Source: Candidatus Heimdallarchaeota archaeon B3_Heim
GTDB lineage: Archaea > Asgardarchaeota > Heimdallarchaeia > Hodarchaeales > Hodarchaeaceae
Direction of reading: 5' to 3'
Assembly (NCBI GenBank): GCA_003144275.1
Contig: NJBF01000004.1
Coordinates: forward strand, 1-32,000
Length of the DNA: 32,000 nucleotides
Every line of letters starts with the position of its first letter. Position 1 is the stretch's first letter. The translations under genes and the position numbers were made by a program. Shown here piece by piece: positions 8,505 through 32,000 of the stretch. The notes beneath the pieces were generated by a model. The model searched no databases, had not been told where the DNA came from, and saw nothing but the letters and a program-made list of their open reading frames with translations.

Positions 8505-8750
8505 TTATTCTTCACGCAATAAGGTAGTATATTTTGTAACGGTATTGATTGAGCGGACAAACCCCTCAGCATCAATGAAGAGAATTCGTACATGGGAGGG
8601 ATCCATATCGATTCCGTGTGTATCCACGAAGATGTCTAGACCAGTGAGATCAGGTTGTAATTCAGAGACAGGTACAGACAACGCAAATGTCTTATTACAT
8701 GCAGTACAGGGTTCTGTTCGCAGGCGTAGATTATCTGACATAGATTTCAT
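8505..8750 (-). CDS. Small putative Zn-binding protein (C15-x2-C18...H45...H53), last gene of the receptor operon
   Basis: CTAC, DTH and HVRILFIDAEGFVRS. ATGA overlap with the stop of the 993-aa gene; AAGGA upstream. Confidence 0.75.
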   Translation of the reverse strand: MKSMSDNLRLRTEPCTACNKTFALSVPVSELQPDLTGLDIFVDTHGIDMDPSHVRILFIDAEGFVRSINTVTKYTTLLREE

Positions 8751-11728
8751 TCCTTATCACTATCATCAAGAAATTCGGATTCAAAATCACCCATTATACT
8801 ATCGGTTACATCATCCATATCTGTTTCAATTTCCTCTAAAATCTCCACAGTTCCAGAGATAAACAGACGGAATTCTTGAATCTTTTGATTGATGATTTCT
8901 TTGTCTTCACCAGCAATAATATAGTTCTTAATATCTTGCATGCCTTCTTTGATTTCTTCTTGGAAGTTATGTGAGACTTCAGTCCACTTTTCACGCATCA
9001 GAAGCATCATAAACAAGACTCCCTGCCGAGGGGTTTCAGGAGTATGTTCTAACGATAATGTAGACACCCACTTTTGAGGTAAACTCGCAACAGGATAGGC
9101 AAAAGTAATTGCTGAACAGCTAATTTCTTCAATGGTAAAGTCAACATAGGTGACCATATCTTCAGCCCGAGTTTGCATGACGAAATCCACAGTATTATTG
9201 GCTCTATCAACTAGTTCTTTCAAATATTGATAGAAATGCCCAATCAGGGAAGGCTCCCAAAGGAGGGTACTGGTGATTCCTTCACCTTGACCATAGGCTG
9301 CCACAAAACCAAACATAGCCTCTTCCCCGAGGTACGCTAGACGTTCGCCACCTCTTAATGCAACGTCGAAGCGTCTTCTACGTACAGTTCGCAATCTCCG
9401 TCTTTGAGTAATTTTAATTGCAGCAAATAATGAAATTATGATGGTAGTGATTATAGTTTCTGTTATAAACAGGCCTATTGCTGTGCTGACAAAAATACGA
9501 GTAATATGAGCATCTATAGGTCGGTTTTCTGAACTAATACTGTTACCATCATTATCTATGGCATTAATTCGAAATTCAATTCGTTCACCCCCAATTACAC
9601 TAGTTGAAAGACGGATGAAGTAAATTCCACCATCTTCATCAAGATCAAGAGTAATCGGTTCACCCCAGCCAGATCCCTTTCTCTTTTCTAATGTAACTTC
9701 AGCTATCCCGCTACCTCCATCGACCGCTTGAACCCAAATATTCAATTGACCTGGGATAGAATATTTAGATTCCCTGATCTGTACTTTGGGAGCAACAGTG
9801 TCCTCAAGCACAATAATTTGGGTTGCACTATTCGTATTTCCTTGTTTATCAAGGACAGTTACATTGATGGAATAAGTGTTTAGATCTCCATAGGTATAGG
9901 GTAATTTTAACGCTCCACCTGGGGTGGAAGGGGTTGATCGAACTTCAAATAACCCAGTTAAACTATTTCGACTTAATTGAACGCTTGAATAATCAATCAA
10001 TCCTGATCCATCAGGATCATTTGTTATAACAAGAGATCCGTTAGCAAATCTAGCAGCCAGAAAAACTCTATCTATATCCCCAAAAGGGTCTGTGGCAGAA
10101 GTAGTAACAAAAACATGGCCTTCCTCAATGGTACTGGGGATAATTTGATTGATCTGTATTTCTGGTATCACAATATCCATTGATGAAATAGTGGAAAACC
10201 CTGAATAGGATTTCGAATTTCCCTGGGTATCACTAAGGAGGATATTAAATTGAAGATTACTTTCATATCCTACCTCTAATTTCACCTGAAATAGCGTCAC
10301 ATTTCCCATTGTAGATTTGTTAGTCATAGGTACTGATTGAGATTGTAAACCATTAAGAGTGTAGTTTAATATTGCTTCCTCAACACCAAAACCCCAATCA
10401 CTAGCATTAATGCTTAATATGACAGTACCATTGCCAAAAAAGTGAACAAAATCAGCATTAGTAGGATCTAATTCACTGATGATTACGGGAGGAGTATAAT
10501 CCCCTATTGTCTCCGAATATACCCCTGTGGTGAAAGAATTCCCTGTACCATCGAAGATGACAAATTTGTAGGATAATATATCACTGACATTAACACCAAC
10601 ACTTTTTTGCCAATAAGTCTGATTATATCCCGCGGAGGTAATATTGGTATTTATTTGATATTCCAAACTTGTATTTGTTTGAATATTGACTGAACCAGAA
10701 CGATTATAGAAAACTGTAACGTTTTTTATTGAACTTTCCCACGTACCCTCACTGAAATGAGCCCAGAAATTATACATGGAAACATCAGCGGTTCTTTGCA
10801 ACCCCACGTCTGTAGGTTCAGGTGGACTGTTGTCTGTGACATCAGTTATCCCTATGATTTCAATATCATCAAACCACACATCAAAATACTCATTCCAGTA
10901 TTCACGAGTGTTTAAATAAGTCCCTAATTCTAATGTATAATTTGCAAGATCATTTCTAGGGACATGAAAACTCCCTGTAAAACTAAACCATTGTTCGTCA
11001 TAAATAACAGATGGACCTACACGGTAAAATACGGACCCATTCGGATTATGGAGAGTACTGGGATTTCCCAACCAGAAATAAGTTTGATCGTCAGGAAAAG
11101 CAATATTACAGCGAATTTCTTGATAATCAGGTGAACCTTCTATAACAACTCCCGGTACCAATTCTGAGAAATTATCAAACGCAGGGGGATCATAAACATC
11201 AAATCGCCATTTGAAACTTATATTTATTTGATCATAGTCTTGTGAAACAGGAAAATCAAGTTGCCAACCAGCTGAAATTCCTTCAGAAATATTTTCATTA
11301 AGTGTATCATTTAAATAACCCCCATTACCAATTCTAACAAACAATGATTCAGAATCAAAATCCTCATCAGTAGGATAGATCGTCCCATTTTCATAAAGAG
11401 TTGGATCTGATAAGACTAAGGGATCTGATCCAAGTGAATCATTCCAGATATTGTTGACAAAAGTGAAGGCCTCATTATCATTATCTATATTTTTTGATAA
11501 TATGTTTGTAACGTTATCTTGCTGAATAGAAAAACGAGAAACTTGATCTGATTGAGTGAAGAACGTATCTTCGGATACTGGTACATTTTTACCTATAGAT
11601 TCATCTGTTATTTCATGTACAAGGTGAGTCTGTAATGTAGGAGAGGTGTTCATGTGCATTGTCAAGATAATAACGTTAGTATTGAATAATAGTAGTAGTA
11701 AAACAATATTTAGTCTATATTTAGTCAT
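8747..11728 (-). CDS. Single-pass membrane protein: CBM-like domain, Ig-like stalk, TM, degenerate longin/uDENN-like cytoplasmic domain
   Basis: Signal-like IVLLLLLFN; VWFDDIEI-terminated beta domain; DxxGN/DTVAP Ig-like motifs; TM at ~9410-9485; poly-Arg; cytoplasmic domain aligns by eye with the two upstream paralogues (WEP, LVDRANNTVDFV, CSA, LLMREKW, FQEE). Confidence 0.85.
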   Translation of the reverse strand: MTKYRLNIVLLLLLFNTNVIILTMHMNTSPTLQTHLVHEITDESIGKNVPVSEDTFFTQSDQVSRFSIQQDNVTNILSKNIDNDNEAFTFVNNIWNDSLGSDPLVLSDPTLYENGTIYPTDEDFDSESLFVRIGNGGYLNDTLNENISEGISAGWQLDFPVSQDYDQINISFKWRFDVYDPPAFDNFSELVPGVVIEGSPDYQEIRCNIAFPDDQTYFWLGNPSTLHNPNGSVFYRVGPSVIYDEQWFSFTGSFHVPRNDLANYTLELGTYLNTREYWNEYFDVWFDDIEIIGITDVTDNSPPEPTDVGLQRTADVSMYNFWAHFSEGTWESSIKNVTVFYNRSGSVNIQTNTSLEYQINTNITSAGYNQTYWQKSVGVNVSDILSYKFVIFDGTGNSFTTGVYSETIGDYTPPVIISELDPTNADFVHFFGNGTVILSINASDWGFGVEEAILNYTLNGLQSQSVPMTNKSTMGNVTLFQVKLEVGYESNLQFNILLSDTQGNSKSYSGFSTISSMDIVIPEIQINQIIPSTIEEGHVFVTTSATDPFGDIDRVFLAARFANGSLVITNDPDGSGLIDYSSVQLSRNSLTGLFEVRSTPSTPGGALKLPYTYGDLNTYSINVTVLDKQGNTNSATQIIVLEDTVAPKVQIRESKYSIPGQLNIWVQAVDGGSGIAEVTLEKRKGSGWGEPITLDLDEDGGIYFIRLSTSVIGGERIEFRINAIDNDGNSISSENRPIDAHITRIFVSTAIGLFITETIITTIIISLFAAIKITQRRRLRTVRRRRFDVALRGGERLAYLGEEAMFGFVAAYGQGEGITSTLLWEPSLIGHFYQYLKELVDRANNTVDFVMQTRAEDMVTYVDFTIEEISCSAITFAYPVASLPQKWVSTLSLEHTPETPRQGVLFMMLLMREKWTEVSHNFQEEIKEGMQDIKNYIIAGEDKEIINQKIQEFRLFISGTVEILEEIETDMDDVTDSIMGDFESEFLDDSDKE

Positions 11729-14700
11729 TAGAATTCCTCCTGCATAACTTCGTCATAATTAATTCCAGCATATAATTTGTTGAAAGAGAGCATTAATCGT
11801 GATACATATTCACGTAATTCTCGTGCTTTTTTCCCTATCTCAATAGGATCTTTTTGTGTTTCAATCATGTCACGTATCTCCCGAAGCTTTTCAGTTAATT
11901 CGTCTTGGAAGACTAAGAGATTATCTCCCCATTCTTTCCTAAGTAAAAGGACAATTGTTAAATTTTCTTTTCCGCCACGAGCTTGTGGATTATCTATTGC
12001 AAATGAATAGCCTAAAGCCGTACACTCATAACTCCCAGTTGAGAAATCAAAAGTCCCAGTTCTTTCGGTTTCATCTATCCCAATAAATTCCAAAGTTGAA
12101 AACGCCTTGTCAGAAAGATCTAGCATAACTTGTTCTTGATCTTCAAGTAAGGCGGGTTCCCAAATCACAGGGACAGGTCCTTGAATCTGATCAAAGAAAT
12201 TAACAGTAACCCCAAGAGCGTATTCATCCATTTGAGTGAGAATGACTTCACGAGAAATCTTCTCACCCTCATCGAAGATTTTCTTCAAATCATATCCTTC
12301 GGTTCTAGAAGTAATTCTAATCCCTATAATGATTGCAGAAATTAAAATAATGGCTCCAAACAGTAAGACGTAGGGATGAAAAACAAGAGGGGGTAAGCTA
12401 CCGTCAACAGGTAGATTTAGTGACTCTAAATCACCTTGATCATAGATTTTCCAATTGCCCGTCTTATCAGCAAGTTTTATCTGAATACTATAAGACTTTG
12501 AGGAGACGAGATCGAAGAGGTCGAGCGGTAAGGTTGTAGTAGCATAATAGTAAATACTTTGATCTTGATCTACCCTACTTCCTTTACCAACTTGCTTAGT
12601 AAGATTTACCCATTGAAAAACTTGTGTACCTTCTAGATTAAAAATTCCTACTTGAACATACTCAACACCGAAGCCTAATTCATTTACTGTTACATTAATT
12701 GAGAGGATTCGATCAGTGTTTTGGGTTATTTTTATTGATTTAATTCGAGGAGCAACATGATCTTCTATAGTAACTTCAATAGTGCTATTCACATTATTCC
12801 CTGCATTATCAGCTATCAAAACTGTGAGCCTGTAAGTTTTCCCTACGGTCAACGTCCCGTTCCAATCAAATCGTAGCTCTGCTCTCTTATTCAGAAATTG
12901 TGGTGAGGCAGCTATTGTCATTAATGACGTAGTAGTAACATTCATTTCTATATCTGTTATTAAAATCCTAACATAACTCGTATTAATGCCAGACCAGATT
13001 TCATCTTGAATAAAAACAGAAATTACGACGTCTCCATCCGTTATGTTACTTAAATCGTCAATTTCATCAAGATTTAAGTAGAAAACTGAGATTTCAGTAC
13101 CAGCTTTCAAATTGAATTTGGGATCATATGGGTCATAATCTGCTCTGACAGTGAAAATTTCGGTAATTGTATTGGTCTTAAGTAGATCCCCAACAATATC
13201 TGGATACTGGTCTGGTTTCACCTGATCAGAAATCTCAAGAGAAAATGTAAGAGGGTCATCTTCATCGAAATCAAACTGAAAATAACTTAAACTCAACCCT
13301 TCGCTATTATTTATTTCTTGATTATACGTATATCTGATATAATAGCGATAGACACCCGATGGAAGAATGATGTATTCAATATCTCCAAGAAAATTGTAAA
13401 ATACATCAGGACGTTTATCAAACAGTACGACAGTATCCACACCACTTCCATTCCAAGCTTCCGTGTCATCAGATATATCTACGACAATTAAAATAGTTCC
13501 ATTTCCAAAGTCATATGTATAAAGCTCCACAACTTGTGGTGCTTTGTCGTCAATCCAATAAACAACTAGATCGCCTACTTTAGGATCCATGTCAATGTCT
13601 AACCATTGATACTGAATCTGTGCTTCTGAAAGGCTAGTATTAGTATCAATTATACTAGTTATAAGATAAGTATGATTATCGGGACCGAAGCTAAAATCTC
13701 TAAAGTGTGTCCACGATACGTTTTCCCTTAAAGTGCCATTATTTAGAAGAAGGGTGTAAGAAATAGAGCTAGGATTGACAATCTCATCACTAATTAAATA
13801 ATTATAAGTAACGTAAATATCTGACCATGTCCCATGTGAAGCTGTTATATTTGCTTTTAAGGTAAGTACAATCTTATCCCAAGATATTATTATACTATAG
13901 ACCTCGGTTGACACATAGAGGACATCAAAATCAATTTCCGTAGTAATTTCCATTACAGCGAAGTCCACCGTACCTCCATAATCTGTTAAATCACCATTCC
14001 AGACTGCAAATCCATTCACAAAACTAACAGAATAATTTTGCGCGGTTTGAAAAGCAAATACGAGTGCAGTTCCATTGAATGGAGATTGATCAAAGGAATG
14101 TCGGCCATAAATATATAAGGTTCCTTCTTCTCCGTAATTTACAAAGAATTTATCTACACCTATATTATCCCAATCTGATAAATTAGAATATTGAATATTT
14201 GAATAAACAAACTTTATTTCCTCCCAGATTAAATCAACTGAAACACTAGGATTTTCGATATCGATCACAGAGGAATTAGTAAACTTTGTAATTCCATAGG
14301 TGGAATCATCAATCTCTTTAATTCTATACCCGTAAATTCCAGTATCAAATTGAATCAAACCTGAATAAACACCAAAACCAGCCGTCATTGGTACTTCTGA
14401 CGCAATAAACCAAACATCATCTTCTACTACAATAATCTCATCAAAAGTAAGGTTTTCATCATGAGCCCAGGATGCACTCAAGAACACAGAAGTCTGATTT
14501 ACCGTGGATAGCCTTCTATCTAATTCCTCGGGAAACATATCGATTATCAGATACGTCCAAGTAATGATGAGGGTAAAATTCGCATCGCCAGCAGTTTTAT
14601 CCACAAATAGAGTCCCCTGAGGATCAAAAGCCGATCCACTTGTAATGATACAGTGAAAGGGGACAATGCTGGCATTCAGATGTGTATAATTTATGGTAAA

Positions 14701-16341
14701 TATTCCGTCTAAATCATCCCCGTTTGTACCATCAGTTAAATTGTACCAACTTTCGGTTCCGAACTTGTAAGAAACATTCCCTCCCATTGCAGAAGAACCA
14801 TCAGAGGCATAGAATACACCTAATTCTAAATTCCAAGATTCATTAACATCTACCCATAGAGCCTTTTGGCTAGGTAAAATATTACTCCCAGAATTTTCAT
14901 TATTATCAGTGTAAATATAATCAAAAACTAAGAGGTCCCAAAATATAGTCATATTAGAGGGTTTATTAATTTCTTGCGATGTTCTATGTCCACGGACGAA
15001 GAAAAGTAGGCTATAACCACTTGTAGGCGTGAGATCTGTTGCGGATAGTGCAATACTTCCGATTCCAAAGTCATTAGTTTCCTGATATAATAATGCTGTA
15101 GGATCTTCAGGCCTATTTGGATTCTGATATCCAATTGAATGTCTACGTGGTGAATTAGTACCTTGTTCAGAGTCAAAAACATGAAAAGTGACATTTAAGG
15201 TATCATTGACATTTAAACGGAATTTTATATTCTCTTGGGTTCCAGACACTAAGTCGTCATAGCTGATAGGAGGATAAGATTCAACAGTCAATTCTTCAAG
15301 GATAACATAATAGATAGTTCCCTTTGCAGTAAACTGAACGGTGGTATTATCTGTTATTCCTTCAACAGTAGTGACTGATACGATTAATTCATGATCACCC
15401 TCATTAAATTCTTGGGATACACTAACAGGCAGACTATAATTTAAGGTATATCTCCCCTCGGCAGTAGTGTTGGAAATAAATCCAGCAAAGGTAAGTTCAC
15501 CACTAGTTGTTGTTGATTTAACTATAGCTTTTGGATTCGAATTTGTGATATTAGGTAAAAAGTCTACAAAATAGAAGTTAGAATTAGTTGTATAGTTTTT
15601 AACCTGTATTTCAATAGTAAAAGGTTGCTCATTATCAAGCTTATTGTTAAATTCGGCAGCAGGTGAAACACTTAAAATATCAACCCTTACATCTCGCATG
15701 GGAAGAGATATTGAATCACTTGAAAGATGTCCCGAAACATTTGTGTACATGATAAGATCGTAAGAGCCTAGTTCCAGTGTTGTTAAGAATGAATTATTTA
15801 GAGTAAAAGTGAGGGAATATTGATCTATAAATGTACCATTCTCATCTTGCAGTTCAACCCAACCTCCAGACCAATCTGTGATCTTAAAATTACTACCATT
15901 GGTTATAATTAGGTTCTCAATATCCTCTGAACCGTTCACACCTATTGCACCTTCTATTGTGCAATTAAGTATAAATGTCATTGAGGTTGCATTCTTTTCC
16001 ATTGCCTCTGGAGATATTTTCGTAATGGTAAGGTCATCACTCGCACTAATTCCAAATCTTGGAGAGAAAAAGGGATTAGTATGAAACGCGTTTAAAGAAG
16101 AAAGATCAGATTCGTGATTATCAGTAATTTCAGAAGATGAAACGGATTCTTCGAGTTGAACAGAATTACTTGACATTAAACGGGGGAGAATTTTTGAGAC
16201 TGGATTTTCGTTCCGAAGTGAGGAATTTTCTGAAATACCCTGTTGGGGAGATATCACAGCAAAAACATTGAAAAGCAGAAGTAGCACTATTCCCAATGAG
16301 TACTCTCTCTTTTTTACCCTAGGCACAGCAAGTAACATCAT
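11728..16341 (-). CDS. Single-pass membrane protein: beta-rich ectodomain, TM, FLCN/SMCR8-like longin (uDENN) domain with ARG motif
   Basis: Signal-like IVLLLLFN; many N-x-S/T sequons; TM at ~12310-12375; cytoplasmic GVTVNFFDQIQGPVPVIWEP ... GYSFAIDNPQARGGKENLTIVLLL. Confidence 0.88.
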   Translation of the reverse strand: MMLLAVPRVKKREYSLGIVLLLLFNVFAVISPQQGISENSSLRNENPVSKILPRLMSSNSVQLEESVSSSEITDNHESDLSSLNAFHTNPFFSPRFGISASDDLTITKISPEAMEKNATSMTFILNCTIEGAIGVNGSEDIENLIITNGSNFKITDWSGGWVELQDENGTFIDQYSLTFTLNNSFLTTLELGSYDLIMYTNVSGHLSSDSISLPMRDVRVDILSVSPAAEFNNKLDNEQPFTIEIQVKNYTTNSNFYFVDFLPNITNSNPKAIVKSTTTSGELTFAGFISNTTAEGRYTLNYSLPVSVSQEFNEGDHELIVSVTTVEGITDNTTVQFTAKGTIYYVILEELTVESYPPISYDDLVSGTQENIKFRLNVNDTLNVTFHVFDSEQGTNSPRRHSIGYQNPNRPEDPTALLYQETNDFGIGSIALSATDLTPTSGYSLLFFVRGHRTSQEINKPSNMTIFWDLLVFDYIYTDNNENSGSNILPSQKALWVDVNESWNLELGVFYASDGSSAMGGNVSYKFGTESWYNLTDGTNGDDLDGIFTINYTHLNASIVPFHCIITSGSAFDPQGTLFVDKTAGDANFTLIITWTYLIIDMFPEELDRRLSTVNQTSVFLSASWAHDENLTFDEIIVVEDDVWFIASEVPMTAGFGVYSGLIQFDTGIYGYRIKEIDDSTYGITKFTNSSVIDIENPSVSVDLIWEEIKFVYSNIQYSNLSDWDNIGVDKFFVNYGEEGTLYIYGRHSFDQSPFNGTALVFAFQTAQNYSVSFVNGFAVWNGDLTDYGGTVDFAVMEITTEIDFDVLYVSTEVYSIIISWDKIVLTLKANITASHGTWSDIYVTYNYLISDEIVNPSSISYTLLLNNGTLRENVSWTHFRDFSFGPDNHTYLITSIIDTNTSLSEAQIQYQWLDIDMDPKVGDLVVYWIDDKAPQVVELYTYDFGNGTILIVVDISDDTEAWNGSGVDTVVLFDKRPDVFYNFLGDIEYIILPSGVYRYYIRYTYNQEINNSEGLSLSYFQFDFDEDDPLTFSLEISDQVKPDQYPDIVGDLLKTNTITEIFTVRADYDPYDPKFNLKAGTEISVFYLNLDEIDDLSNITDGDVVISVFIQDEIWSGINTSYVRILITDIEMNVTTTSLMTIAASPQFLNKRAELRFDWNGTLTVGKTYRLTVLIADNAGNNVNSTIEVTIEDHVAPRIKSIKITQNTDRILSINVTVNELGFGVEYVQVGIFNLEGTQVFQWVNLTKQVGKGSRVDQDQSIYYYATTTLPLDLFDLVSSKSYSIQIKLADKTGNWKIYDQGDLESLNLPVDGSLPPLVFHPYVLLFGAIILISAIIIGIRITSRTEGYDLKKIFDEGEKISREVILTQMDEYALGVTVNFFDQIQGPVPVIWEPALLEDQEQVMLDLSDKAFSTLEFIGIDETERTGTFDFSTGSYECTALGYSFAIDNPQARGGKENLTIVLLLRKEWGDNLLVFQDELTEKLREIRDMIETQKDPIEIGKKARELREYVSRLMLSFNKLYAGINYDEVMQEEF

Positions 16342-22300: not shown

Positions 22301-25300
22301 GATCAGCAGAATGAACATAAATTGAACCTCCATCATCAATAGATACTATACTTCCTGAAGGAGCTTGTGTATCACGTCTCACTTCCAAAGAAACAGAATC
22401 AATATTACCACAGTTATCGATACTAGTGAAGATCATGTTCCCAATATCAGTAGATGTGTTGGAAATAGTATAGGTCCAAGCATAGGGAGTAGTAGAATCA
22501 TTTAATGCTAGACCTCTGTTAAAAAAGGAGGGAAAGAGAACAAATTGTATACCAGAATCATCAATCTGTGCTCCATCATCTGTAACAACTGAAAAATCAA
22601 CAATAATATCGCTAGGCATTTGATTACCATACCATATAACCTGAGTCCCATTAGCAGGATAATAAGCAAAATCGGAGATTTCAGAAACAATAACTGGATT
22701 AACCGTTGGAACAGTATTATCCTCATAACAATTAATTGCTAAAATTCTAGTATTTCCTACCCAATCGATAATTATTAATGTAATCTGATCATCAAGACCA
22801 GCATCATCAGTGAATCCAACGAAATAAGTTAATTCATACATGCTATCATATGTCGTGTCTTCAGGAGATTCACCACCAAAATCAGAGCTGCCGCTAACTT
22901 TTTGCAGATCTGATATACCATCTGAAGTAGTTAATTGGATGGTAAAGGAGTCATTCATACTCTGATCATTTGAATAGAAAATACTTGAACCATCATAATA
23001 TAGATGTTCTGAGTCCTCAATAACATCCACAATGGATGGAACAGTCGGAGCTGTATTATCAAAGGTACATGGAAGGTTTACGGTATTATTGTTCCCAACA
23101 TTGTCCACAACAGTTATTATTATTTGATTATCTCCACCAGCGTTATCATTTTGATTCACAGTATATACCATCTCGTACATTCCACTATAAACGGTATCTT
23201 CAGGAGTTCCTCCAAAATCTAAACTTCCTATAGCTTTTTGTAATCCCGAAAGAGAATCAGTCGAAGTTAGTTGGATTGTAAAGCTTTCTGCCATAACCTG
23301 ATCATTGGAGTAAAACAGATTGGTTGTCGTTAGATTATATAAGTAGTCAGATGTCTCAATAATGCTTACTATTACAGGTTGTGTAGGTTCAACATTATCA
23401 ACAGAGATCGTAAGACTAACGCTGGTGGGATTGCCTACGTTGTCCCATACGGTAATACTAAAGGCAGGTTCTAATTCTCCTTGGTTAACTATGAACGATA
23501 ATTCATAACCGCTTCCACCATAAGTACTGTTTGTAACAGTATCCCCAAATTCACTAGCATTGGCTTTTAAGAGATCACTCCCAGTATCGATAGCCGTAAC
23601 TTGAACAGTAAAACGTTCATTCATAATTTGATCATTGGAATAGTAAAAGGTTTCACTACCTGATTCATAGAAAAGATATTGGGATCCAACTTCAACAAGA
23701 ACATCCACAATATCTAAACTTGTAGGACCAGTATTATCAAGGACGCAAGAAAGAGAAGTGGCAATTGAATTGCCAACTCGGTCATAAACCGTTATAATAA
23801 TTTGATTATCCCCACCTGCGGTTTCACCATCGCTTAAAGTATAATAAAGTGAATATTCGGATGAATAGGAAAGATTAAATGGAGATTCTCCTCCAAAATC
23901 AATACTTCCAGTAGCATTAAGAAGATCTGCTCCGCTATCGCTCGTAGTAAAGTGAATCGTAATGACTTCACTCATTTGATAATTATTGGAATAGTAAAAG
24001 GTAGGGGCATTGTAATATAAATACTCTGAATATTCATCAACTGAGGTAATCACTGGAACAGAAGGATTGTCATTATCCAACTGAAGATCAACACTAAGAG
24101 AGTTATTAACGTTTCCTACTAGATCATATACATTAAAGGTGATGAGAGCGCCACCTGTCTCACTTTGACTCACGGTATAATTAATTTGATATCCACTATC
24201 ATAAGTAAAATCACTTGGAACCTCACCGAATGCGCCAGTACCTGTTAAATTGTATAATCCGGCTCCACCTACGTTATCTTGAGCAAGAATGGTAATAATG
24301 AAAGTATCGGACATTGGTTGATCATTTGAGAAGAATAAACGAGTTGAAGAGTTATCATAATAGAGGTATTCACCATTTTCTACAAAGCTAACAATGGACA
24401 GATTTTCGGGACTTGAGGTATCACGAACCACTTGTATAACCATATAGGTTTCACTTCGTCCACTAGCATCATAAGCCGTCGCATTAATCCAATAACCATT
24501 AGGTGTTGCATTCGTAACATTGAAGGTACCAACAAGGGTCTCATTTTGTAAAAGAATTGATAAGAAAGGTTCAAACCGTGTGTATCCTCCTATCATTCCA
24601 CTCCCACTGTCAAGAGCGGTAATCGTCACATTAAAGTTAGCTGGATTCGATCCCATTAAGGTGCTGTAATACAATTTGTTATTGGGTGTATCAGCGAAGA
24701 TAGTCCATTTATATGGAATAAATTCACTCAGAGATTGAAGTGAGACAATGGGATCTTCTTCGTCTACGAATAGATTTACTTGTATCCAGCTACTATTGAT
24801 TCCAGCTAAATTCCGTGCTCTAACGAGGATACTACGATTTCCTGTGTTTCCAATATCATAATTAATCAAGGAATTGGTGGCATTGTAATAATCAGTGTTG
24901 ATAATATTATACCATCTCAGCAATTCTGTTGAATTATCATAGTTTTGCTCTGTACTGTTTTGATCGCTTTTTATATAGATATCAGTGATTTTTGAGCTCG
25001 ATTCAAAGATAAAGGTTAGATTAAAATCAGACCCATCCCAATCATATAAGAACGGATTAGGAATCCCTGGTTCATTTCCGAGGACATCAATGCTAAAAAT
25101 GATTGGTCCCAAAGTATCTAAACGAAGGTTAAAACCATAGAGACCTGAACTAAAAATGTGTGTCTGAATATTCCCCGCCTCATCTTGGACACGAATATCA
25201 ATTGTGTTTTCTCCATTAAATAGAGTATCATTCCATGAAGAGATAGTCCAGTTTGTGACATAATCGCCAGCTTGGGTTGAGTCAAATATAACATACCAAC

Positions 25301-28300
25301 CTTGGCCGTCATCTGTTTGATATTCCGCTTTAGTCAATCTACTAGCTAACGAATGAGTCTCGTTGTTCCTCAGAAAATCTACATCAAATGTCGTTAGATA
25401 ATCCGCGAGATTGTAATAAGGAGTTAATCCACCTGCGGTTGGATCATTATATTCTATTTCTGGGGGAGTATCATCGTGCCAAATCTGAACACTAGCTGAT
25501 TGAGTGTTGTTGACGTGATCCCAACAATAGACTGTAAGAGTAATATTAGCGTTATTTATGATATTAATTTCATTTTCATCATTCCAAGTTGACCCTACTA
25601 GGGAATCGACTGTAAATACTTGTTGTGTTGCAACGTAAGAGGTTAATACTTCATCATATTGCGAAAATGCAAAGCTTGTAGTAGTAATCCCACTATTATA
25701 AGTTCCTAAATTATCAATCGCTGTTCCACCATATGATGCAATTCCTCCAACAGAATTGTTCCAACCTGAAGTGGGGAAATCAATAGTTAATGAAGGAGCT
25801 GTATTATCCTTCCTACAGGTTAAACCAATCGAATTTCTATTGCCAACTAGATCATATAACCAGATTGTAAGAGTACCATCCGAAACATCGTCATTTTGGA
25901 CAATATTGTATTCCAGTTGATAATATGTACTGTAAGTTGAATTTCCAATTCCTGTATCACCAAATTCGTCATCTCCCGTTGCATTCTTTCTTCCTACTCC
26001 AGAGTCTGTCCCAGAAATATGAATTTTGAATGTGGCACTCATAGGTTGGTCATTGGAGAAAAATAAATTAATTCCATCATAATAAAGAAAATCTGATTCG
26101 GGAGACTCAAGAAGAGCAACAATAGCTAAACTTTGAGGCGGTGTATTATCAAGGTTGGTTGTTAAAGCCACACTTGCAGGATTACCAACATTGTCCCAAA
26201 CTGTTATACTAAATGCTGGTTCTGAATCTCCTTCATTAACAACGAAGGATAATTCGTAACCACTGGGTCCGTAGAAGCTCTCTGAAACACTGTCCCCAAA
26301 TTCAGTAGCATTAGCTTTTTGTAAATCACTTCCCGTGTCGATAGCCGTCACTTGAACTGTGAGGCTTTCTGCCATTGTTTGATCATTAGAATAATAGAAA
26401 GTCTCTCCACTACTGTCATAATATAAAAATTGTGCTCCGACTTCTTCTATTACATCATCTATTGAAACACTTGTTGGACCGGCATTATCTACTACACAAC
26501 TTAAAGAATAAGTTCGTGAATTGCCCACTTGATCATAAGCTGTAATATTTATCCAATTATCAGCACCTGCAGTTTCACCATTACTTACGGAATATGTAAG
26601 GATGTACTGAGAATCGTATGTAGAATCCTCAGGTGTTTCTCCTCCAAAATCAGTACTACCGTTTGCTTTAAGTAATCCCGATATTGCATCGGTAGTGGTA
26701 AATTGAATGGTTAAGCTATCACTCATCGGTTGATCATTGGAATAGTAAAATGTAGGCGCATCATAATAAAGATATGCTGAAGACTCAATAACAGCAGTTA
26801 CAATGGGTAGAGAAGGATTACTATTATCTAGAATGCAACTGATGGATGTTGAATTGGCATTTCCTACTCGATCAAAGACCTCTATCACTATCTGATTATC
26901 TCCACCTGCATGTTCGGTCTCCCCGACAGTATATACAAGATCATATTGCCCAAGATAGCTAATATCTTCAGGTGTTCCACCAAAATCAGTGCTACCATTT
27001 GCTTTCAGGAGCCCCGCACTTAAGTCGTCAGTCGTTAATTGAATAGTAAAAGGATCATCCATTGGTTGGTCATTAGAATAATAGAAAGTCTGTCCACTAA
27101 TGTTGTAATATAAGTACTCAGACGACTCAATTATTCCTATAATGGTAGGTTCTGTAGGTGATTGATTATCAAGCACTAGAGTCAGACTAACAGAAGAATT
27201 AACATTTCCTACACGATCAAAGACCGAAAATAATATTGCTCCACCACCAGTTTCCCCTATACTTACAGTGTAGGAAATAAAATATTCACCTACGTAATCA
27301 GAATCTGATGGTTGTTCGCTAAACGCAAGGCTACTAGTAAGATTTTTCAACCCTGCACCTCCTCCATTGTCCGCAGATAGTAAGGAAACATCGAATAAAG
27401 CATTCATTATTTGATCATTTGAATAATAAAGAGTTGTGATGGAACTATCATAGTAAAGATATTCACTTGAATAACTCACACTCTGAATCGTTATCCCAGA
27501 TGGAGGTGTATTGTCTTTGACTAAGTTTAATGTTACAGAATCAATATTATGTACCCTATCATAAACTGTAAATGTTATTTGATCTCCTGATGCTTCTTCA
27601 TCGTAACCGACTGAATAATTTACAAGATAATATCCTTGATACGAGGTATCTGAAGGGGTGTCAGTAAAATCTGTGCTTCCTTCAACTTTTAATAATCCAC
27701 TTCCCACACCATCTTGACTTGTGATATTAACACTGAATAATTCATTTTGTCCAAAGTGCTGATTTGCATAATAGAGAATGGTAGCTGAATAGTCAAGAAA
27801 TTCACTGTTTTCGATGATTTCATTTATAGGATCAATTATGGGAGCAGTATTATCTAAAGTAACTGGAAGAAGAATACTACTATTTACATTGCCCACTTTA
27901 TCATATACAAAGACTTGAACCACTCCACCGCCAACAGTTTCTGATTGAGAAACAGTATATTGGAGGTCAAATGTCCCTGATGCATTTGTTGTTATAACAG
28001 GCGATTCTCCAAAGGCTAATGAGCCCGAGACATTTTCAACACCACTCAATAATTCAAGAACATCAATATGGAGCGATAGGCTTTCACTCATTGCTTGATC
28101 GTTGGAGTAAAATAAGACTGTTCCACTATAGTAAAGGAGATCGCTGACATCAGGGCCAGTTAATGAATCGAGTGTTACGAAATCTGGGGCATCGTTATCT
28201 AGGATACAATCTAAATTGAGAGAATTACTATTACCAACGTTATCAAATATCGTTAAGATAATATAGTTGTCAGATGCATATTCATTTGTGTTGAGAGTAT

Positions 28301-31300
28301 AAGGAAGTTCATAATAGGAACTATAAACCAAATCACCCACGATTGATCCACCAAAATCTGCTTCACCTGTAGCATTCAATCGTCCCGCTCCTCCCACATC
28401 ACTTCCTGTTAAACGAATTGTAAATGGTTCATCTAATGATGCAGTCTTGTTAGAGTAGTATAGAATATCATTTGATAAGTCATAATGGAGATAGTATGAG
28501 GACTCAATAATATCGGAGATTGAAATACTCGGAGCGGAGTTATCTTTGATACAACTCAAATCAATTGAATTTACATTACCTACCCTGTCGAACATCGAAA
28601 TTGTAACCAGTTCATCAGAAGCATTGTCATTCTGAACTATATTATACGTAAGTTCATAAAATGTAGAATAACTAGAACTTCCTACCCCTACATCATTGAA
28701 TTCTGCTTCACCTGTAGCATTCTTTCTTCCCGCTCCAGAATCGGTTCCATTTATACGGATCACAAAAGTAGCTGTCATTACTTGATCGTTGGAGTAGTAG
28801 AGTGTGGATCCATCAAAATACAGGTAATCTGAATCTGGAGTTTCTAGTACTGTTATGATATTCAAGTTTTGGGGAGCTGTATTATCAACCTGTGTCACTA
28901 AGGTAAATAATTCTGAGTTATCTACATTATCCCATACGAGAATAGTAAATGTTGGTTCCGATTCTCCTTGATTAATAGTAAAACTTAATTCAAATCCGCT
29001 ACCTCCGTATATACTTGTCGATACGCTATCTCCGAATTCGCTTGCATTTGCTCTTTGTCTTCCACTTTCAAGATCATCTGCAGTTACCTGAACTGTAAAG
29101 CTTTCAGCCATCAACTGATCATTAGAATAATAAAATACTTCAGAACCAGAATTGTAGAATAAATACTCACTCGATTCTAAAATATCAGTCAATGCAACAT
29201 TTATTGGAGGAGAGTTGTCGTGGTACAAATCAAAGGATATTGTCTGGTTATTTCCGACAAAATCTAAAACAGATATTGTAACAGAACCATTGTAGCTCGC
29301 AACTGCAGGTCCGTCTATCTGATAGCTAAACTCCCATAATCCTCCTACATGACTAGTGTCAGATCCTCCAAGAGTAAAACCTGATCCAATATCAGGAAAA
29401 ACAGCATAACGTAAACCAGCTCCTCCTGTATCCGAAGAATTAACTCTTACTGTGAAATTACGGGATCCACGATCTGGACGAACATTTGAATAATATAAAG
29501 TCGTTGTAAGGTTGACATAATGGAGATATTCAGCTAGTAGTTCTTCAATGATATCATCAATAGCCAGGTTAGATGGAGCTTCATTATCAACAACAAAGAA
29601 AACCAAGAATGTGTAATTGTTATTTACGTGATCAGTGATAGTAATCGATATGTTACCTGTTGTTGTATCGTTTTCATCATCTGTTGAATCTATCCCATAA
29701 TCAGCTGACCATGATGCTCCTAAGTCAGTAGAGGGAGTACTCCCAAAAACTGTTTGAAAACTAACTCTATCGACTCCTGATCCTCCTAAACCATCAAATC
29801 CAGTCCCATAAACTGTTAAAGTTTGTGTACTGGACATTTCATCGCTGAAGAAGAAGTGAGATGTATTATAATGGAGAAAATCACTGCCATGGTCATCAAA
29901 ATAGTACTCATCATTTAACAAAGAGGGATTAGTCAAATCACCATATACCGTTAATGCAACACTATTGCTATTATTCACTTGATCATATATCCAAAATGTT
30001 AATGTACCATTTTCCACATTATCAGTGGTATTTAGGATGTAGGTAGCAAAATTAGAAATATCTGCGTAGCTTTCTCCTAGATAGGATCCTCCAATCATTA
30101 ATTTGTAACCACTTTCATTCGCAGGTTCATTATAATCAACAACTACGGTAAATGTATGGTCTACGGTAGATTTATTGCTGAGATATAATGTTAAAGTCCC
30201 TGTATCATTATAAAGGTAAATGAAATTCGATCCATAGTCATTTATAAGACTAATTTTTACATCACGAGGACCAGAGTTATCAATTCGCGTAACTAAATCA
30301 ACGCTATCCGAATTACCACACATATCAAAGATAGTAATTGTTACTAGATTATCAGAAGCATTTTCCGATTGTAAAATGTCATATGATAATTCAAAGTACC
30401 CTGAATACGCACTTGTACCTATTCCAGTTTCCTCGAATTCATCCTCACCTGTAGCATTCTTTAAACCCGCACCAAAGTCTGTAGCATTTACACGTATTGT
30501 GAAAGATTCAGCCATTACTTGATCATTACTATAGAAGAGAATCTCTTTTGGTGAATCATAATAAAGAAAATCACTCAACTCATCGCCAATAATATCTAAT
30601 ATAACAAGACTCACTGGGGCATTATTATCTAGAAACGTGGGTAAAGAGGTTGAATTAATATTACCACAGTTATCATAGAAGAATATAGCTATTTGATCCC
30701 CTGTTACAGGGTCACCAGAATTCACTGTATAATTTAATTCATAAAATCCTGCATAGGTGGTATCAAACACATTTGTTTCACCAAGATCATCCTCACCTGT
30801 GGCATTTAATATTCCAGAACCACTATCACTTCCAAAAACTCGTATAGTAAATTGCTCATTTAATGCTGGATTAGTATTGGAGAAGTACAGATTTCCACCT
30901 GTATAGTGGAGATATTCACTGTTGGCATGACCATTAACAGCTTCAATTGACAATTCTGTTGGACCATCATTATCAATAGTTAGCGTAATATTATCTGTTG
31001 CACTATTCCCGACCATATCATAACCAGAAACTATTAAGTTACCTGTTTCATTTTCATTTTCATTGATGTAATAACCAAGATTATAGTAAGAATCACTTAC
31101 GTAGATTGTCCCTATAGGAGAATCTCCGAAAGCCGTTGCCCCTGTCGCTCTATCACGTCCACTTTGTCCGATACCATCATCAACTGTAACATTCAAAGTG
31201 AATGACGAATTCATACTTTGATCGTTTGAGTAAAACAGCGTTCCACCACTATAGTGAAGAAGCCAAGAATTTTCTGTTAACGTAGTGATGTTAACTATTG

Positions 31301-32000
31301 GTGCACTATCATCTCGGTATATTTCAAAGATAGTGCTTCCGTTGTTACCTACAAGATCTGATATTGTTACTGTATACGAACCATTTGCCGTAGCTGTGGG
31401 AGAGAATGAGTACTGATGATCCCAGATTAATTGATGACTATCCCCAGCTCCTGCAGTAGTATTATACCCTCCATCTGTACTGAAAATATCTGGGAAAAAG
31501 CTAACATTTAGACCTGCATCAAGATTTGCATGAGTTTCTTGACCATCTATTTTAACAGTAAACGCACGGGTTCCTGATCCAACATTAGAGTAATAGATTA
31601 AAGTAGTTGATGCATTATACAGATATTCAGGTAATAAATCTTCTGCTAGACTAAGTATTGAGACTTCTGGATCATAATTATCTTTTAAAAACGTAACAGT
31701 AGCTGTTATTTGATTTCCGACATTATCCGTTGAAGTAATTACAATATCAGTTTCTGGGCCAGTCTGTTCAGAATCAGTTCCATGAATAAAGTATGAGGCA
31801 CTCCAGATAGTACCAGGAGTATTATTATTTGGAGAATCACCAAAATGAGATGTGAAATTAACAGTAAGTAACCCAGAGGGAAAATCATTTGATGTTCCGC
31901 TGATATTAATCTGGACAGGAACACCGCCCATATTATCACTAAAGAAAAAATAGTCTCCTGCAGGAGTAATGTAAACAAAAAGACTGTCGGAAATATCCTC
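16338..32000 (-). CDS. Giant adhesin-like single-pass membrane protein (>5220 aa, 5'-truncated) with tandem Ig-like repeats and a cytoplasmic FLCN/SMCR8-like longin domain
   Basis: The frame is open from 32000 (EDISDSLFVY...SDNMGG, a repeat unit), so ATG 31931 is internal. ~113-aa repeats; TM at ~16915-16975; cytoplasmic GIVASFFDQTKGPVPIIVYP ... GYAFAVANPEARGGQENLSLSFVV. Confidence 0.92.
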   Translation of the reverse strand, partial: EDISDSLFVYITPAGDYFFFSDNMGGVPVQINISGTSNDFPSGLLTVNFTSHFGDSPNNNTPGTIWSASYFIHGTDSEQTGPETDIVITSTDNVGNQITATVTFLKDNYDPEVSILSLAEDLLPEYLYNASTTLIYYSNVGSGTRAFTVKIDGQETHANLDAGLNVSFFPDIFSTDGGYNTTAGAGDSHQLIWDHQYSFSPTATANGSYTVTISDLVGNNGSTIFEIYRDDSAPIVNITTLTENSWLLHYSGGTLFYSNDQSMNSSFTLNVTVDDGIGQSGRDRATGATAFGDSPIGTIYVSDSYYNLGYYINENENETGNLIVSGYDMVGNSATDNITLTIDNDGPTELSIEAVNGHANSEYLHYTGGNLYFSNTNPALNEQFTIRVFGSDSGSGILNATGEDDLGETNVFDTTYAGFYELNYTVNSGDPVTGDQIAIFFYDNCGNINSTSLPTFLDNNAPVSLVILDIIGDELSDFLYYDSPKEILFYSNDQVMAESFTIRVNATDFGAGLKNATGEDEFEETGIGTSAYSGYFELSYDILQSENASDNLVTITIFDMCGNSDSVDLVTRIDNSGPRDVKISLINDYGSNFIYLYNDTGTLTLYLSNKSTVDHTFTVVVDYNEPANESGYKLMIGGSYLGESYADISNFATYILNTTDNVENGTLTFWIYDQVNNSNSVALTVYGDLTNPSLLNDEYYFDDHGSDFLHYNTSHFFFSDEMSSTQTLTVYGTGFDGLGGSGVDRVSFQTVFGSTPSTDLGASWSADYGIDSTDDENDTTTGNISITITDHVNNNYTFLVFFVVDNEAPSNLAIDDIIEELLAEYLHYVNLTTTLYYSNVRPDRGSRNFTVRVNSSDTGGAGLRYAVFPDIGSGFTLGGSDTSHVGGLWEFSYQIDGPAVASYNGSVTISVLDFVGNNQTISFDLYHDNSPPINVALTDILESSEYLFYNSGSEVFYYSNDQLMAESFTVQVTADDLESGRQRANASEFGDSVSTSIYGGSGFELSFTINQGESEPTFTILVWDNVDNSELFTLVTQVDNTAPQNLNIITVLETPDSDYLYFDGSTLYYSNDQVMTATFVIRINGTDSGAGRKNATGEAEFNDVGVGSSSYSTFYELTYNIVQNDNASDELVTISMFDRVGNVNSIDLSCIKDNSAPSISISDIIESSYYLHYDLSNDILYYSNKTASLDEPFTIRLTGSDVGGAGRLNATGEADFGGSIVGDLVYSSYYELPYTLNTNEYASDNYIILTIFDNVGNSNSLNLDCILDNDAPDFVTLDSLTGPDVSDLLYYSGTVLFYSNDQAMSESLSLHIDVLELLSGVENVSGSLAFGESPVITTNASGTFDLQYTVSQSETVGGGVVQVFVYDKVGNVNSSILLPVTLDNTAPIIDPINEIIENSEFLDYSATILYYANQHFGQNELFSVNITSQDGVGSGLLKVEGSTDFTDTPSDTSYQGYYLVNYSVGYDEEASGDQITFTVYDRVHNIDSVTLNLVKDNTPPSGITIQSVSYSSEYLYYDSSITTLYYSNDQIMNALFDVSLLSADNGGGAGLKNLTSSLAFSEQPSDSDYVGEYFISYTVSIGETGGGAILFSVFDRVGNVNSSVSLTLVLDNQSPTEPTIIGIIESSEYLYYNISGQTFYYSNDQPMDDPFTIQLTTDDLSAGLLKANGSTDFGGTPEDISYLGQYDLVYTVGETEHAGGDNQIVIEVFDRVGNANSTSISCILDNSNPSLPIVTAVIESSAYLYYDAPTFYYSNDQPMSDSLTIQFTTTDAISGLLKANGSTDFGGETPEDSTYDSQYILTYSVSNGETAGADNWINITAYDQVGNSRTYSLSCVVDNAGPTSVSIDDVIEEVGAQFLYYDSSGETFYYSNDQTMAESLTVQVTAIDTGSDLQKANATEFGDSVSESFYGPSGYELSFVVNEGDSEPAFSITVWDNVGNPASVALTTNLDNTPPQSLAIVALLESPESDFLYYDGINLFFSNDQPMSATFKIHISGTDSGVGRKNATGDDEFGDTGIGNSTYSTYYQLEYNIVQNDDVSDGTLTIWLYDLVGNRNSIGLTCRKDNTAPSLTIDFPTSGWNNSVGGIASYGGTAIDNLGTYNSGITTTSFAFSQYDEVLTSYVATQQVFTVDSLVGSTWNDENEINIINNANITLTVYCWDHVNNTQSASVQIWHDDTPPEIEYNDPTAGGLTPYYNLADYLTTFDVDFLRNNETHSLASRLTKAEYQTDDGQGWYVIFDSTQAGDYVTNWTISSWNDTLFNGENTIDIRVQDEAGNIQTHIFSSGLYGFNLRLDTLGPIIFSIDVLGNEPGIPNPFLYDWDGSDFNLTFIFESSSKITDIYIKSDQNSTEQNYDNSTELLRWYNIINTDYYNATNSLINYDIGNTGNRSILVRARNLAGINSSWIQVNLFVDEEDPIVSLQSLSEFIPYKWTIFADTPNNKLYYSTLMGSNPANFNVTITALDSGSGMIGGYTRFEPFLSILLQNETLVGTFNVTNATPNGYWINATAYDASGRSETYMVIQVVRDTSSPENLSIVSFVENGEYLYYDNSSTRLFFSNDQPMSDTFIITILAQDNVGGAGLYNLTGTGAFGEVPSDFTYDSGYQINYTVSQSETGGALITFNVYDLVGNVNNSLSVDLQLDNDNPSVPVITSVDEYSEYLYYNAPTFYYSNNYQMSEVITIHFTTSDSGADLLNATGSIDFGGESPFNLSYSSEYSLYYTLSDGETAGGDNQIIITVYDRVGNSIATSLSCVLDNTGPTSLDIVDVLVEVGSQYLFYESGSETFYYSNDQIMNERFTVQVTAIDTGSDLLKANASEFGDTVTNSTYGGSGYELSFIVNQGELEPAFSITVWDNVGNPTSVSLTISVDNVEPTQPVIVSIIETSDYLYNLTTTNLFYSNDQVMAESFTIQLTSTDSLSGLQKAIGSLDFGGTPEDTVYSGMYEMVYTVNQNDNAGGDNQIIITVVDNVGNNNTVNLPCTFDNTAPTVPSIVDVIEDSEHLYYDGSSIFYSNDQSMNDSFTIQLTTSDGISDLQKVSGSSDFGGESPEDTTYDSMYELTYFVGFTDDAGLDDQITLIIIDWVGNTRILAINCYEDNTVPTVNPVIVSEISDFAYYPANGTQVIWYGNQMPSDIIVDFSVVTDDGAQIDDSGIQFVLFPSFFNRGLALNDSTTPYAWTYTISNTSTDIGNMIFTSIDNCGNIDSVSLEVRRDTQAPSGSIVSIDDGGSIYVHSADLDKIWYSDLMDSSPQSVTITISTSDSDVNDAGVATTTYPLIGNDPEINLTSGSRIYQLTSTDDTNATVFFLIYDKVGNTYQIPLQVIRDLLNPTVAFNDVSNPVYDPSSNELDNLDNWYDQGELTGGYDIFSIPSDSLSGVFSVYMSWDSTSGDSYFSQNLGADGDGNLLSDLGINISDDNDGVVNITLTVYDQVNNQAQAYLLIRLDNSNPFEAGYVIDTTILHQNGKELILSGQTDDGLGSGIQNITIISTLFEDIVSTGFTAWSLSNDSNFDSVITPGQNETVSIIVYDNVNNEYSYTADITYHLFNFVNLVTTIPRHVEIDDPGTWNITFNFEFDGLQINETQAIIDRLLNISQFNVAIDGINVPILGGISWSDDILILIVDLPDSLTSVSVGSTYSIQINWFVSDLPADISLAFSFTKPNVVTYHDLEISYVSDDLDIVETNNPEYSLMNVILYFENDDSPYTTDLVDFNVNLTIDGADATFIQSVHLANGNHNLTFQLPEGLTTGLKDIEFNWLFSSGLYYHVVDSNISLGRVTYYDIVIDAIVPSSMQLFEIDGDFSISVNYDVREDEGDQSLDYVLSTSLEELSIKGSDYTNQIDIGSFFNSLNGSYGFSFDLFAANTTIQWLGNQSIRFKVQSTVSNLWEWGVVTIKGHDLKMIIDSIRTWPGGLDFFDPDEQTPFTLNFTVLDDIGFGNEPVTNINLTDNFITIFLENIEVINLNATINSFLEWGYINQVQGKYYLRFVLEVEDATQLGIGKIALSLTISDIDGHQVTVSSEENSVILTSKDLALLLGLEWVYIPDFGSDGLFTFGYENSTEVLDWTFRVSVGSTITIRYRIYAFDNPTVESTDPQNIYWKTPWDSAEQEKSALNQTSFITINVTSNQVIRQLFIAYVEDNKEKQLGFSDSTWRFYLEWDEMEAATSDVDDDPTDINNSVLNVDGNYTLTYNTQFASSGINAAGSVFQVNITLWQYDGQDWIQFNQTNFVHTDGDGSLLPIFFSNGTATIGNLFVIDTPSAPNFADGKLDFQFQFSEVVKATVTVRATEEATSDGYDYRYYSTYPDYPGEVFSFVNQTSATYSQNTSIWTKFIVDIWAEDYRIPRLTGATINVSVRYAHDSTLDLTGVRVFILNENISTAYPSSQWDGYQVSFPNLISNGLVENAFYSISQFIDPRFGISSFEADDGKIQVEIIWDQVIFQIGFAQPWGSNIRFNVNETAFVEIVAYYDYDDTPFNGIIKMQHGSFSNSSSLFYNPRNWNDSVSVPIAPEYTTRPGDTLFLVNGILEDLHGLNGTKERQGYLVLSESGSRWLIIRWDRILVDFIPDQLDYYPGESLNVSLSIFYEKDGKSLDSSHFEYSLYRDGQIFLSNRTQFYFTDFEIHALNHTYHIDWSVDYKTNLRGTFSSGLVKQPKAKITIEWIDNIDPLLVYHELLDWGNGSIGFLVIASDDSPESYFGSDIANITVQLTLFGFPPGDPLYLTEYNTSSGPMFYGSLTTDSSTPRNNFKFNESVTYTISLKDNQGNEISHVFEKFLDSDSATPIHDPVFINFSSSQDGRITVSVNSTDIWSGLSGAVIAFKDPSTGNWSEFYSMSYRNVDRGREYSFSSVFDVGTLLEYEIRISDIVGNVQIITDDIEILDRAGPKLVGGTFAYLGFGSFSINIATADDGSEISKAVLGYYVGGEWKYIDLTKVLSVGSGSSLQKTTSRYNAKFLGDFSIPTNFIDDTSVLFSLSLSDSEGNTRIISNSEINSTLKLSSLSLSDDGYNIPSSAEELLNNPIVILLIFTILFSIGFITVQRFRTISGFDKKKVLTEMVNISDNEVWEENDSVSIGIVASFFDQTKGPVPIIVYPEKLRSSEKMLASLSDRSFSTLGFVSNPEDDKHATFRFQVGADKCTVFGYAFAVANPEARGGQENLSLSFVVRPPWGNLENINRFMNELVERLQHIHHLMKENADSKLVQKEMEITRNFLTRAMIVFRKKYKKEFIE
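21390..32000 (-). repeat. Tandem coding repeats of ~339 nt (113 aa), Ig-like units
   Basis: Linker Pro codons at 23724, 23385, 23046 and 22707 are exactly 339 nt apart. Consensus DNxxP..I.E.S.YLYY..FYYSNDQxM..FTI...D..SG...A.G..FG.....Y.L.Y.V..GE......I.V.D.VGN. About 26 such units plus ~5 divergent ones, counted by eye. Confidence 0.92.

Follow-up and report, generated by a model that had tools for sequence, protein, structure and literature searches.

Predicted folliculin-class longin tails on giant surface receptors of a Heimdall-group archaeon, candidate GAPs for Rag-like GTPases

The 32-kb window analyzed here, the first 32 kb of the 126.6-kb contig C87 in an archaeal genome of 3.95 Mb, carries an operon for three predicted single-pass surface receptors, and structural modeling supports their C-terminal tails as longin domains of the FLCN/SMCR8/NPRL2 class. 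On balance, receptors with such tails would more likely than not engage Rag-like GTPases, probably as GAPs. In the proposed mechanism, three type I surface glycoproteins would hold their longin tails directly under the membrane, the giant and 1,537-aa proteins with the GP motif and loop arginine typical of GAP-type longins and the 993-aa protein with a degenerate copy. The partner at the level of the family would be a pair of Rag-like (Gtr1/RagA-type) GTPases bound at the membrane, and the tails would probably stimulate Rag GTP hydrolysis, tying the Rag state to what the repeat ectodomains touch. We infer Rag binding by the operon tails, GAP catalysis, the pairing of active with degenerate tails, and the direction of signaling. 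Rag GTPases and longin GAPs (folliculin and GATOR1) are central to eukaryotic nutrient sensing, and Asgard archaea have many small GTPases and longins.

The operon consists of four consecutive minus-strand ORFs encoding the giant receptor and proteins of 1,537, 993, and 81 aa. Stop and start codons overlap between them (ATGA, TAATG, and ATGA), which bears out the four coupled genes described in the first-pass annotation of this DNA. Only the C-terminal 5,220 codons of the giant gene lie in the window (16338..32000, minus strand), and the full gene spans C87:16338-42788. Its frame comprises 8,821 codons without stops, extends to contig position 42788, and encodes 8,816 aa from the first ATG. 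Of the graded lengths given earlier (>5220, 1537, and 993 aa), the two smaller ones hold, while the giant extends well past the window. An assembly artefact is unlikely to account for this frame, since comparably long frames of 8,857, 10,069, and 10,431 aa occupy the same place in relatives. The 1,537-aa receptor (11728..16341, minus strand) has its transmembrane (TM) helix at 12313-12369 and its longin tail, with GP and ARGG intact, at 11731-12312. The 993-aa receptor (8747..11728, minus strand) has its TM helix at 9416-9472, followed by the degenerate longin tail at 8750-9415. The 81-aa protein is encoded at 8505..8750 on the same strand. The same closely spaced series of genes (giant, ~1,540 aa, ~1,000 aa with a degenerate tail, and ~80 aa) is found again in other members of the genus, for example in G208:C52, G127:C14, and GCA_016839515.1, and one partial genome has the degenerate-tail gene and an 81-aa-type gene without the other two operon genes. 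A look for sequencing runs containing this DNA yielded no RNA dataset and just two sediment DNA runs, with a 0.05 share of the sampled words.

The giant, 1,537-aa, and 993-aa proteins each possess an N-terminal hydrophobic signal and a single strong C-terminal TM helix located ~190-220 residues from the C terminus. In the giant, this helix (16914..16970, minus strand; P0004 residues 5011-5029) has a Kyte-Doolittle value of 2.68, with no Lys or Arg in the 15 residues before it and five in the 15 after; the corresponding helices are P0003 residues 1325-1343 in the 1,537-aa protein and P0002 residues 753-771 in the 993-aa protein. Across the three proteins, the 15 residues preceding the helix contain 0-1 Lys or Arg and the 15 following it contain 3-9. 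The ectodomains are acidic (pI about 4.1), contain almost no Cys, and are enriched in N-x-S/T sequons relative to shuffled sequence, with 213 observed vs. 136±11 in the giant and 43 vs. 17±4 and 23 vs. 11±3 in the two smaller ectodomains, while the tails hold 1-3 sequons each. Because of this positive-inside charge pattern and the enrichment of sequons outside the membrane and their rarity in the tails, all three proteins are predicted to be type I single-pass proteins with a signal peptide, N-out and C-in. The cytoplasmic placement of the tails claimed at first reading, for which a location outside the cell would have been fatal, is therefore upheld at the level of prediction. Two further hydrophobic segments occur at giant residues 198-240 (C87 about 42070-42200), a possible membrane hairpin ~200 residues after the signal peptide. 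If this hairpin inserts, the giant could be a three-TM protein with its final orientation unchanged.

The tail of the giant (16341..16913, minus strand) is 191 aa in length. Its AlphaFold2 model, built on a 130-sequence alignment, has a pLDDT of 93.5 and a pTM of 0.89. It shows a longin core (b-b-a-b-b-b-a-a), preceded by two juxtamembrane helices and built around a five-stranded antiparallel sheet (E34-43, E47-54, H62-76, E85-94, E97-109, E117-126, H140-155, and H160-190). In exhaustive structural alignment with VIA, the best match is an Asgard longin, the lokiarchaeal 8yqg (Z 14.3), for which no functional data were found. It is followed by chains of the FLCN complex (6nzd_H, Z 11.9), the C9orf72-SMCR8 complex (7o2w_A, Z 11.2), Lst4 (Z 10.5), the FLCN-FNIP2 complex (6ulg_N, Z 10.4), DENND1A (Z 10.1), and the GATOR1/SEA complex (8fw5_B and 8adl_S, Z 9.3 and 9.1), the last two of which we take to be NPRL2/Npr2. 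The generic longins of TRAPP, VAMP7, and Sec22 score about Z 8, and roadblock proteins score Z 5.7-7.1. Foldseek against the Swiss-Prot models likewise places SMCR8 (E 3e-6), Lst7, DENND6, and NPRL2 at the top. The tails had been put forward as longin domains to be compared with FLCN, SMCR8, C9orf72, and NPRL2, and in that comparison longin chains rank first, so that assignment to the FLCN/SMCR8/NPRL2 class is supported by the modeled fold. The claim had also named a uDENN fold, and this part does not hold: no DENN/uDENN module follows the longin core, and the tail ends ~5-30 residues past the last longin helix. Pfam Folliculin (PF11704) is the sole recurrent family in the tails, yet its matches (34 of 130 tails, best E 1.9e-4) are all sub-threshold, and the membership score of the tail is 15.1 bits against a 23.3-bit cut-off, below the gathering threshold. 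Searches of PDB sequences with the tail profiles returned only designed helical bundles and other noise.

The three tails (P0004 residues 5030-5220, P0003 residues 1344-1537, and P0002 residues 772-993) were described from the start as homologous segments of ~190-220 aa, and sequence comparison confirms this. The giant and 1,537-aa tails share 37% identity (E 1e-40), and the 1,537-aa and 993-aa tails share 27% (E 2e-13). Direct comparison of the giant and 993-aa tails is not significant (E 0.17), and their homology is therefore established through the 1,537-aa tail and the family profile. The earlier count of three tail proteins is right for the operon but not for the genome, which encodes a fourth tail-bearing paralog of 3,075 aa on contig C49, with a tail 32-33% identical to the operon tails.

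When 1.84 billion representative proteins were searched with a profile built from the four tails, 180 matched, 114 with E ≤ 1e-30. Nearly all full-length matches, which reach 5,809 aa, have the domain at their very C terminus, and nearly all have a strong TM helix directly upstream of it; about 14 of the 180 are soluble and roughly 180-590 aa long. The relatives with a named source belong to MAGs labeled Hodarchaeales, Kariarchaeaceae, or Heimdallarchaeota, and their annotation is almost always "hypothetical protein." Strong matches (E < 1e-30) occur only in the class of the window's own genome and in one more family of the phylum, while in other Asgard classes the matches are weak and fall in frames of 250-480 aa that encode soluble proteins. 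The fusion of a C-terminal longin to a TM-anchored receptor thus looks lineage-specific, as judged from the distribution of these sequences.

The first-pass annotation had noted that the window contains no GTPase gene, which is correct, the nearest Rag genes being ~38 kb off at C87:81-88 kb. It had also proposed coupling to small GTPases, with Rag, Arf, and Rab given as the targets of the known longin GAPs, and here gene neighborhoods point to Rag. The C49 paralog has two Gtr1/RagA-family genes within 3 kb, encoding proteins of 735 aa (C49:19295-21502; PF04670 E 1.4e-30) and 311 aa (C49:21781-22716; E 7.8e-37); two of the five strong PF04670 matches in the genome thus lie beside this paralog, and the other three lie at C87:81-88 kb. 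Synteny was surveyed in relatives of the genus and in five genomes from four other families. On at least 17 contigs of the genus, a tail-bearing gene has Rag genes as neighbors, in some cases just 87-170 bp away on the same strand, and several paralog classes are represented. Outside it, adjacency occurs in 5 of 5 genomes examined, bringing the number of Asgard families to five. Four loci in three of those genomes share a cassette comprising, in order, one or two receptors (1,440-1,608 aa), a long Rag in the same orientation (490-651 aa), and a convergent short Rag (406-409 aa). By a rough estimate, chance adjacency in one genome has a probability of about 1-4%; since the genomes are related, the recurrence is read as conserved linkage and not as a series of independent events.

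Because related receptor genes adjoin Gtr1/RagA-type genes in so many genomes, Rag is the likely partner rather than Arf or Rab. The window's own operon has no adjacent Rag gene, so its link to Rag proceeds through tail homology (the 32-33% identity to the C49 tail), whereas cassette membership is found for the C49 paralog and many relatives. The tail might instead target an Arf-related or Rab-like GTPase, or have no GTPase target and be, for example, a longin of the SNARE or SRP-receptor type; this is considered very improbable. In its favor, Arf is the target of SMCR8-C9orf72, about 15 additional small-GTPase matches of low score occur in the genome, and the operon lacks a Rag neighbor. However, the recurrent neighbors of the family are of the Gtr1/RagA type (E 1e-23 to 1e-42), SNARE and SRP elements are absent, and control partners score 0.00-0.04 in complex prediction.

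In that prediction, the C49 tail with its neighboring short Rag, GTP, and Mg scored 0.60, 0.50, and 0.47 (median 0.50), against 0.04 for the best control. The runs share at least 84% of contacts, and the partner pLDDT is at least 85. Of 80 solved complexes, 58 attained the mark set for this score, as did 2 of 110 mismatched pairs; among those that attained it, scores of 0.60 or under belonged to only 7 of the 80 solved complexes and to both mismatched pairs. The pass may reflect likeness, because like complexes have already been solved. The modeled complex lends the tail-Rag pairing weak support.

Several further observations concern the Rag loci. The cluster at C87:81056-88460 (L038) contains three strong and one weak Gtr1/RagA-type genes (310, 339, 314, and 315 aa) with unknown genes of 271 and 183 aa between them, and the same layout occurs about 30 kb from the operon in the relative G208:C52. 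At G062:C101:14866-15114 and G181:C41:26815-27036, tail fragments with internal stops lie beside intact Rag pairs, apparently the remnants of receptor genes in cassettes whose other members are conserved. The 339-aa protein encoded beside the C49 Rag pair (C49:22733-23752, minus strand; L004:13734-14753) has no Pfam match and a GP-containing N-terminal strand. It was considered as a GP-motif longin and rejected, as its hhalign probability against the tail profile is 0.3%.

The motifs of the tails bear on whether they would act catalytically. Among longins, the GP motif marks FLCN, NPRL2, SMCR8, and C9orf72 specifically and is absent from FNIP2, NPRL3, and non-GAP longins; its place is the loop or the start of strand 2, next to the arginine finger (2025, PMC12290439). 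GP together with the arginine finger has already been reported for soluble Asgard longins (PMC12290439). In the giant tail, G47-P48 (16770-16775) opens strand 2, and R114 (16572-16574), within A-R-G-G-x-E-N, lies in the loop between strands 4 and 5. R114 is a candidate arginine finger that would likely correspond to the catalytic arginine FLCN R164, SMCR8 R147, or NPRL2 R78. Of 130 family tails, 115 contain GP, and both GP and the ARGG arginine are invariant in the 76 TM-anchored "active-type" receptor tails. The giant and 1,537-aa tails, which keep GP together with the candidate arginine finger, fit the expectation of GAP-type tails. A juxtamembrane G-[FLY]-D also occurs just after the TM helix and ahead of the longin core (P0004 residues 5037-5042); its Gly and Asp each occur in 90% or more of the 76 active-type tails, and the degenerate 993-aa tail retains the Asp as well.

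Longin domains are more often GEFs or platforms than GAPs. The tails could serve as a tether that keeps Rag dimers at the membrane or at contact sites, similar to Ragulator/LAMTOR or other longin/roadblock platforms, with Arg and GP serving binding and no catalysis taking place. Rag adjacency fits tethering equally well as GAP action, a subclass of tails without the arginine is nevertheless conserved, and no lipid-anchor or TM signal was noticed on inspection of the C49 short Rag sequence. In addition, longin/roadblock dimers are generic GTPase platforms (PMC10933270). However, the restriction of GP to FLCN, NPRL2, SMCR8, and C9orf72 (PMC12290439), its invariance here together with the arginine, and the ranking of GAP-complex longins above TRAPP, SNARE, and roadblock platforms by fold all run against a purely structural role. 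Tethering without catalysis is therefore regarded as doubtful, though as the most serious competitor of the GAP reading.

The 993-aa tail lacks both GP and the arginine, and a 13-residue insert replaces the arginine loop. Eight TM-anchored representatives carry the same replacement of the GP region and the same 13-residue insert, and judged by its sequences the degenerate-tail subclass shows conservation rather than decay. The conserved operon thus encodes tails of both the active and the degenerate type. We read the degenerate tail as a non-catalytic partner, analogous to FNIP, NPRL3, and C9orf72.

The degenerate subclass is conserved together with the 81-aa gene. In relatives from the genus, at least 17 contigs have this small gene directly after the one for the degenerate tail (51-96% identity). 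Residues C15, C18, H45, and H53 are invariant in 21 orthologs and paralogs, including a paralog elsewhere in the genome, and by this CCHH pattern the protein may bind Zn. Its AF2 model (pLDDT 89) has five beta strands; it has no Pfam match and no fold match in the PDB (no Foldseek hit below E 0.7, best VIA Z 3.2). The protein is likely a cytoplasmic accessory co-encoded with the degenerate-tail gene. The paralog (C96:74979-75191, minus strand) is 36% identical and lies in an unrelated neighborhood. Since atlas look-alikes also form unnamed Asgard clusters of 71-75 aa, the small-protein family is wider than the operon.

Among the closest known systems is FLCN-FNIP (Lst7-Lst4 in yeast), a longin-DENN GAP complex for RagC/D (Gtr2). 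The likeness lies in the longin fold, GP before strand 2, the loop arginine, fold matches to both subunits, an implied Rag partner, and "active" and "degenerate" longins encoded together. The differences are that no DENN module is present here, that the domain forms the C-terminal tail of a single-pass surface protein and not the N terminus of a soluble one, and that the archaeal host lacks lysosomes and TOR. Moreover, the sequence match falls below the Pfam threshold, and GAP activity here is a prediction. GATOR1 (NPRL2-NPRL3) and C9orf72-SMCR8 belong to the same longin GAP class with GP and an arginine finger (PMC12290439), but they are soluble multi-subunit assemblies with extra domains (DEPDC5, WDR41, and DENN), in contrast to the bare longin and TM anchor of the receptors. 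The nearest structural relatives are soluble Asgard Folliculin/SMCR8 longin proteins (PMC12290439 section 2.6; AFDB A0A842RCD3 and A0A523THY3) and the Lokiarchaeota Roadblock-Longin protein (8yqg). These proteins differ in being 150-480 aa long; their sources mention no TM helix, and in the AFDB examples the longin is N-terminal. MglA-MglB and Ragulator use a related roadblock/longin superfold to bind small GTPases at a membrane or cell pole, but with lower Z (5.7-7.1), no TM fusion, and no GP/Arg pair.

Plexins are eukaryotic single-pass receptors with an intrinsic cytoplasmic GAP domain. They resemble the archaeal receptors in combining large extracellular repeats, one TM helix, and a cytoplasmic GAP for small GTPases, yet the plexin GAP fold is unrelated (RasGAP-like, acting on Rap). 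The two are not homologous, and the comparison is one of analogy only.

FLCN-like and NPRL2-like longins and their motifs are already published for Asgard archaea. The literature searched, the coverage of which is incomplete, yielded no account of FLCN-type longins anchored by a TM helix or of Rag genes beside them. To this the window adds the three-receptor operon with its 8,816-aa member, the degenerate-tail subclass, and the co-encoded 81-aa CCHH protein. A 2024 paper stated that genome layout does not allow regulators to be paired with GTPases in Asgard archaea (PMC10933270). The present family provides a concrete match, a GP/Arg longin fixed by its own TM helix with a Rag-like pair encoded beside it, and the operon together with the Rag genes of relatives makes a eukaryote-type pairing testable in an archaeon. 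Two active tails, one degenerate tail, and a CCHH protein resemble the logic of active and inactive subunits in FLCN-FNIP, NPRL2-NPRL3, and SMCR8-C9orf72. If GAP activity is true, the pairing of Rag with longin GAPs would predate eukaryotes, and a start at the cell surface and not at an organelle would be suggested. Going further, Heimdall-group archaea might possess a plasma-membrane forerunner of the eukaryotic Rag-folliculin/GATOR switch, in which giant contact-sensing receptors act as hetero-oligomers of active and pseudo-GAP subunits with a small CCHH cofactor and from whose cell-surface pathway the lysosomal nutrient-sensing GAPs of eukaryotes descend; this scenario is speculative and seems rather improbable.

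In the giant ectodomain, an array of a ~107-aa repeat occupies 21405..32000 (minus strand) within the window, with the consensus D-N-x-x-P ... Y-L-Y-Y ... Y-S-N-D-Q ... D-x-V-G-N. An iterated HMM search of the giant against itself found 51 matches covering 5,315 residues, or about 50 copies. The module profile has no PDB sequence match and no Pfam family, and the ectodomains as a whole have no Pfam family beyond sub-threshold Big_13 and Big_3_2; the module may be an Ig-like beta-sandwich. The label "adhesin-like" given at first reading fits the repeat architecture, but since the modules match no Pfam or PDB family, it is drawn from that architecture. Across the family, ectodomain length ranges from about 200 to >10,000 aa, while the tail remains constant.

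Information could also flow from the inside out, such that the proteins are giant adhesins or surface-layer fibers which cytoplasmic GTPases or the cytoskeleton position, cluster, or release, much as MglA/MglB governs adhesion complexes in Myxococcus, and not sensors with an output. The huge repeat-rod ectodomains have no recognizable ligand-binding or enzymatic domain and vary in length above a constant tail, and the upstream neighbor of the giant gene encodes a surface protein of the PGF-CTERM type, all of which would suit such fibers. This explanation is nonetheless compatible with the tail as a Rag GAP, from which it differs only in the direction of information flow, and as an account of the receptors it is judged unlikely. 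The neighbor in question, 320 bp upstream of the giant (C87:43124-52273, minus strand), is a secreted protein of 3,049 aa without a longin tail. Its C terminus contains P-G-F, a hydrophobic helix, and R-R-R-H, and it is probably an archaeosortase-processed surface protein.

The window also encodes Cdc6/Orc1 and class I LysRS. The Cdc6/Orc1 gene (1675-2952, minus strand) is followed by ~500 bp of non-coding sequence (2953-3465), in which a replication origin could lie. Two small plus-strand genes without Pfam matches, at 7370-7909 (179 aa) and 8071-8475 (134 aa), converge on the end of the operon, and two related contigs (L048 and L049) have genes of 173-190 and 115-117 aa in the same place and orientation.
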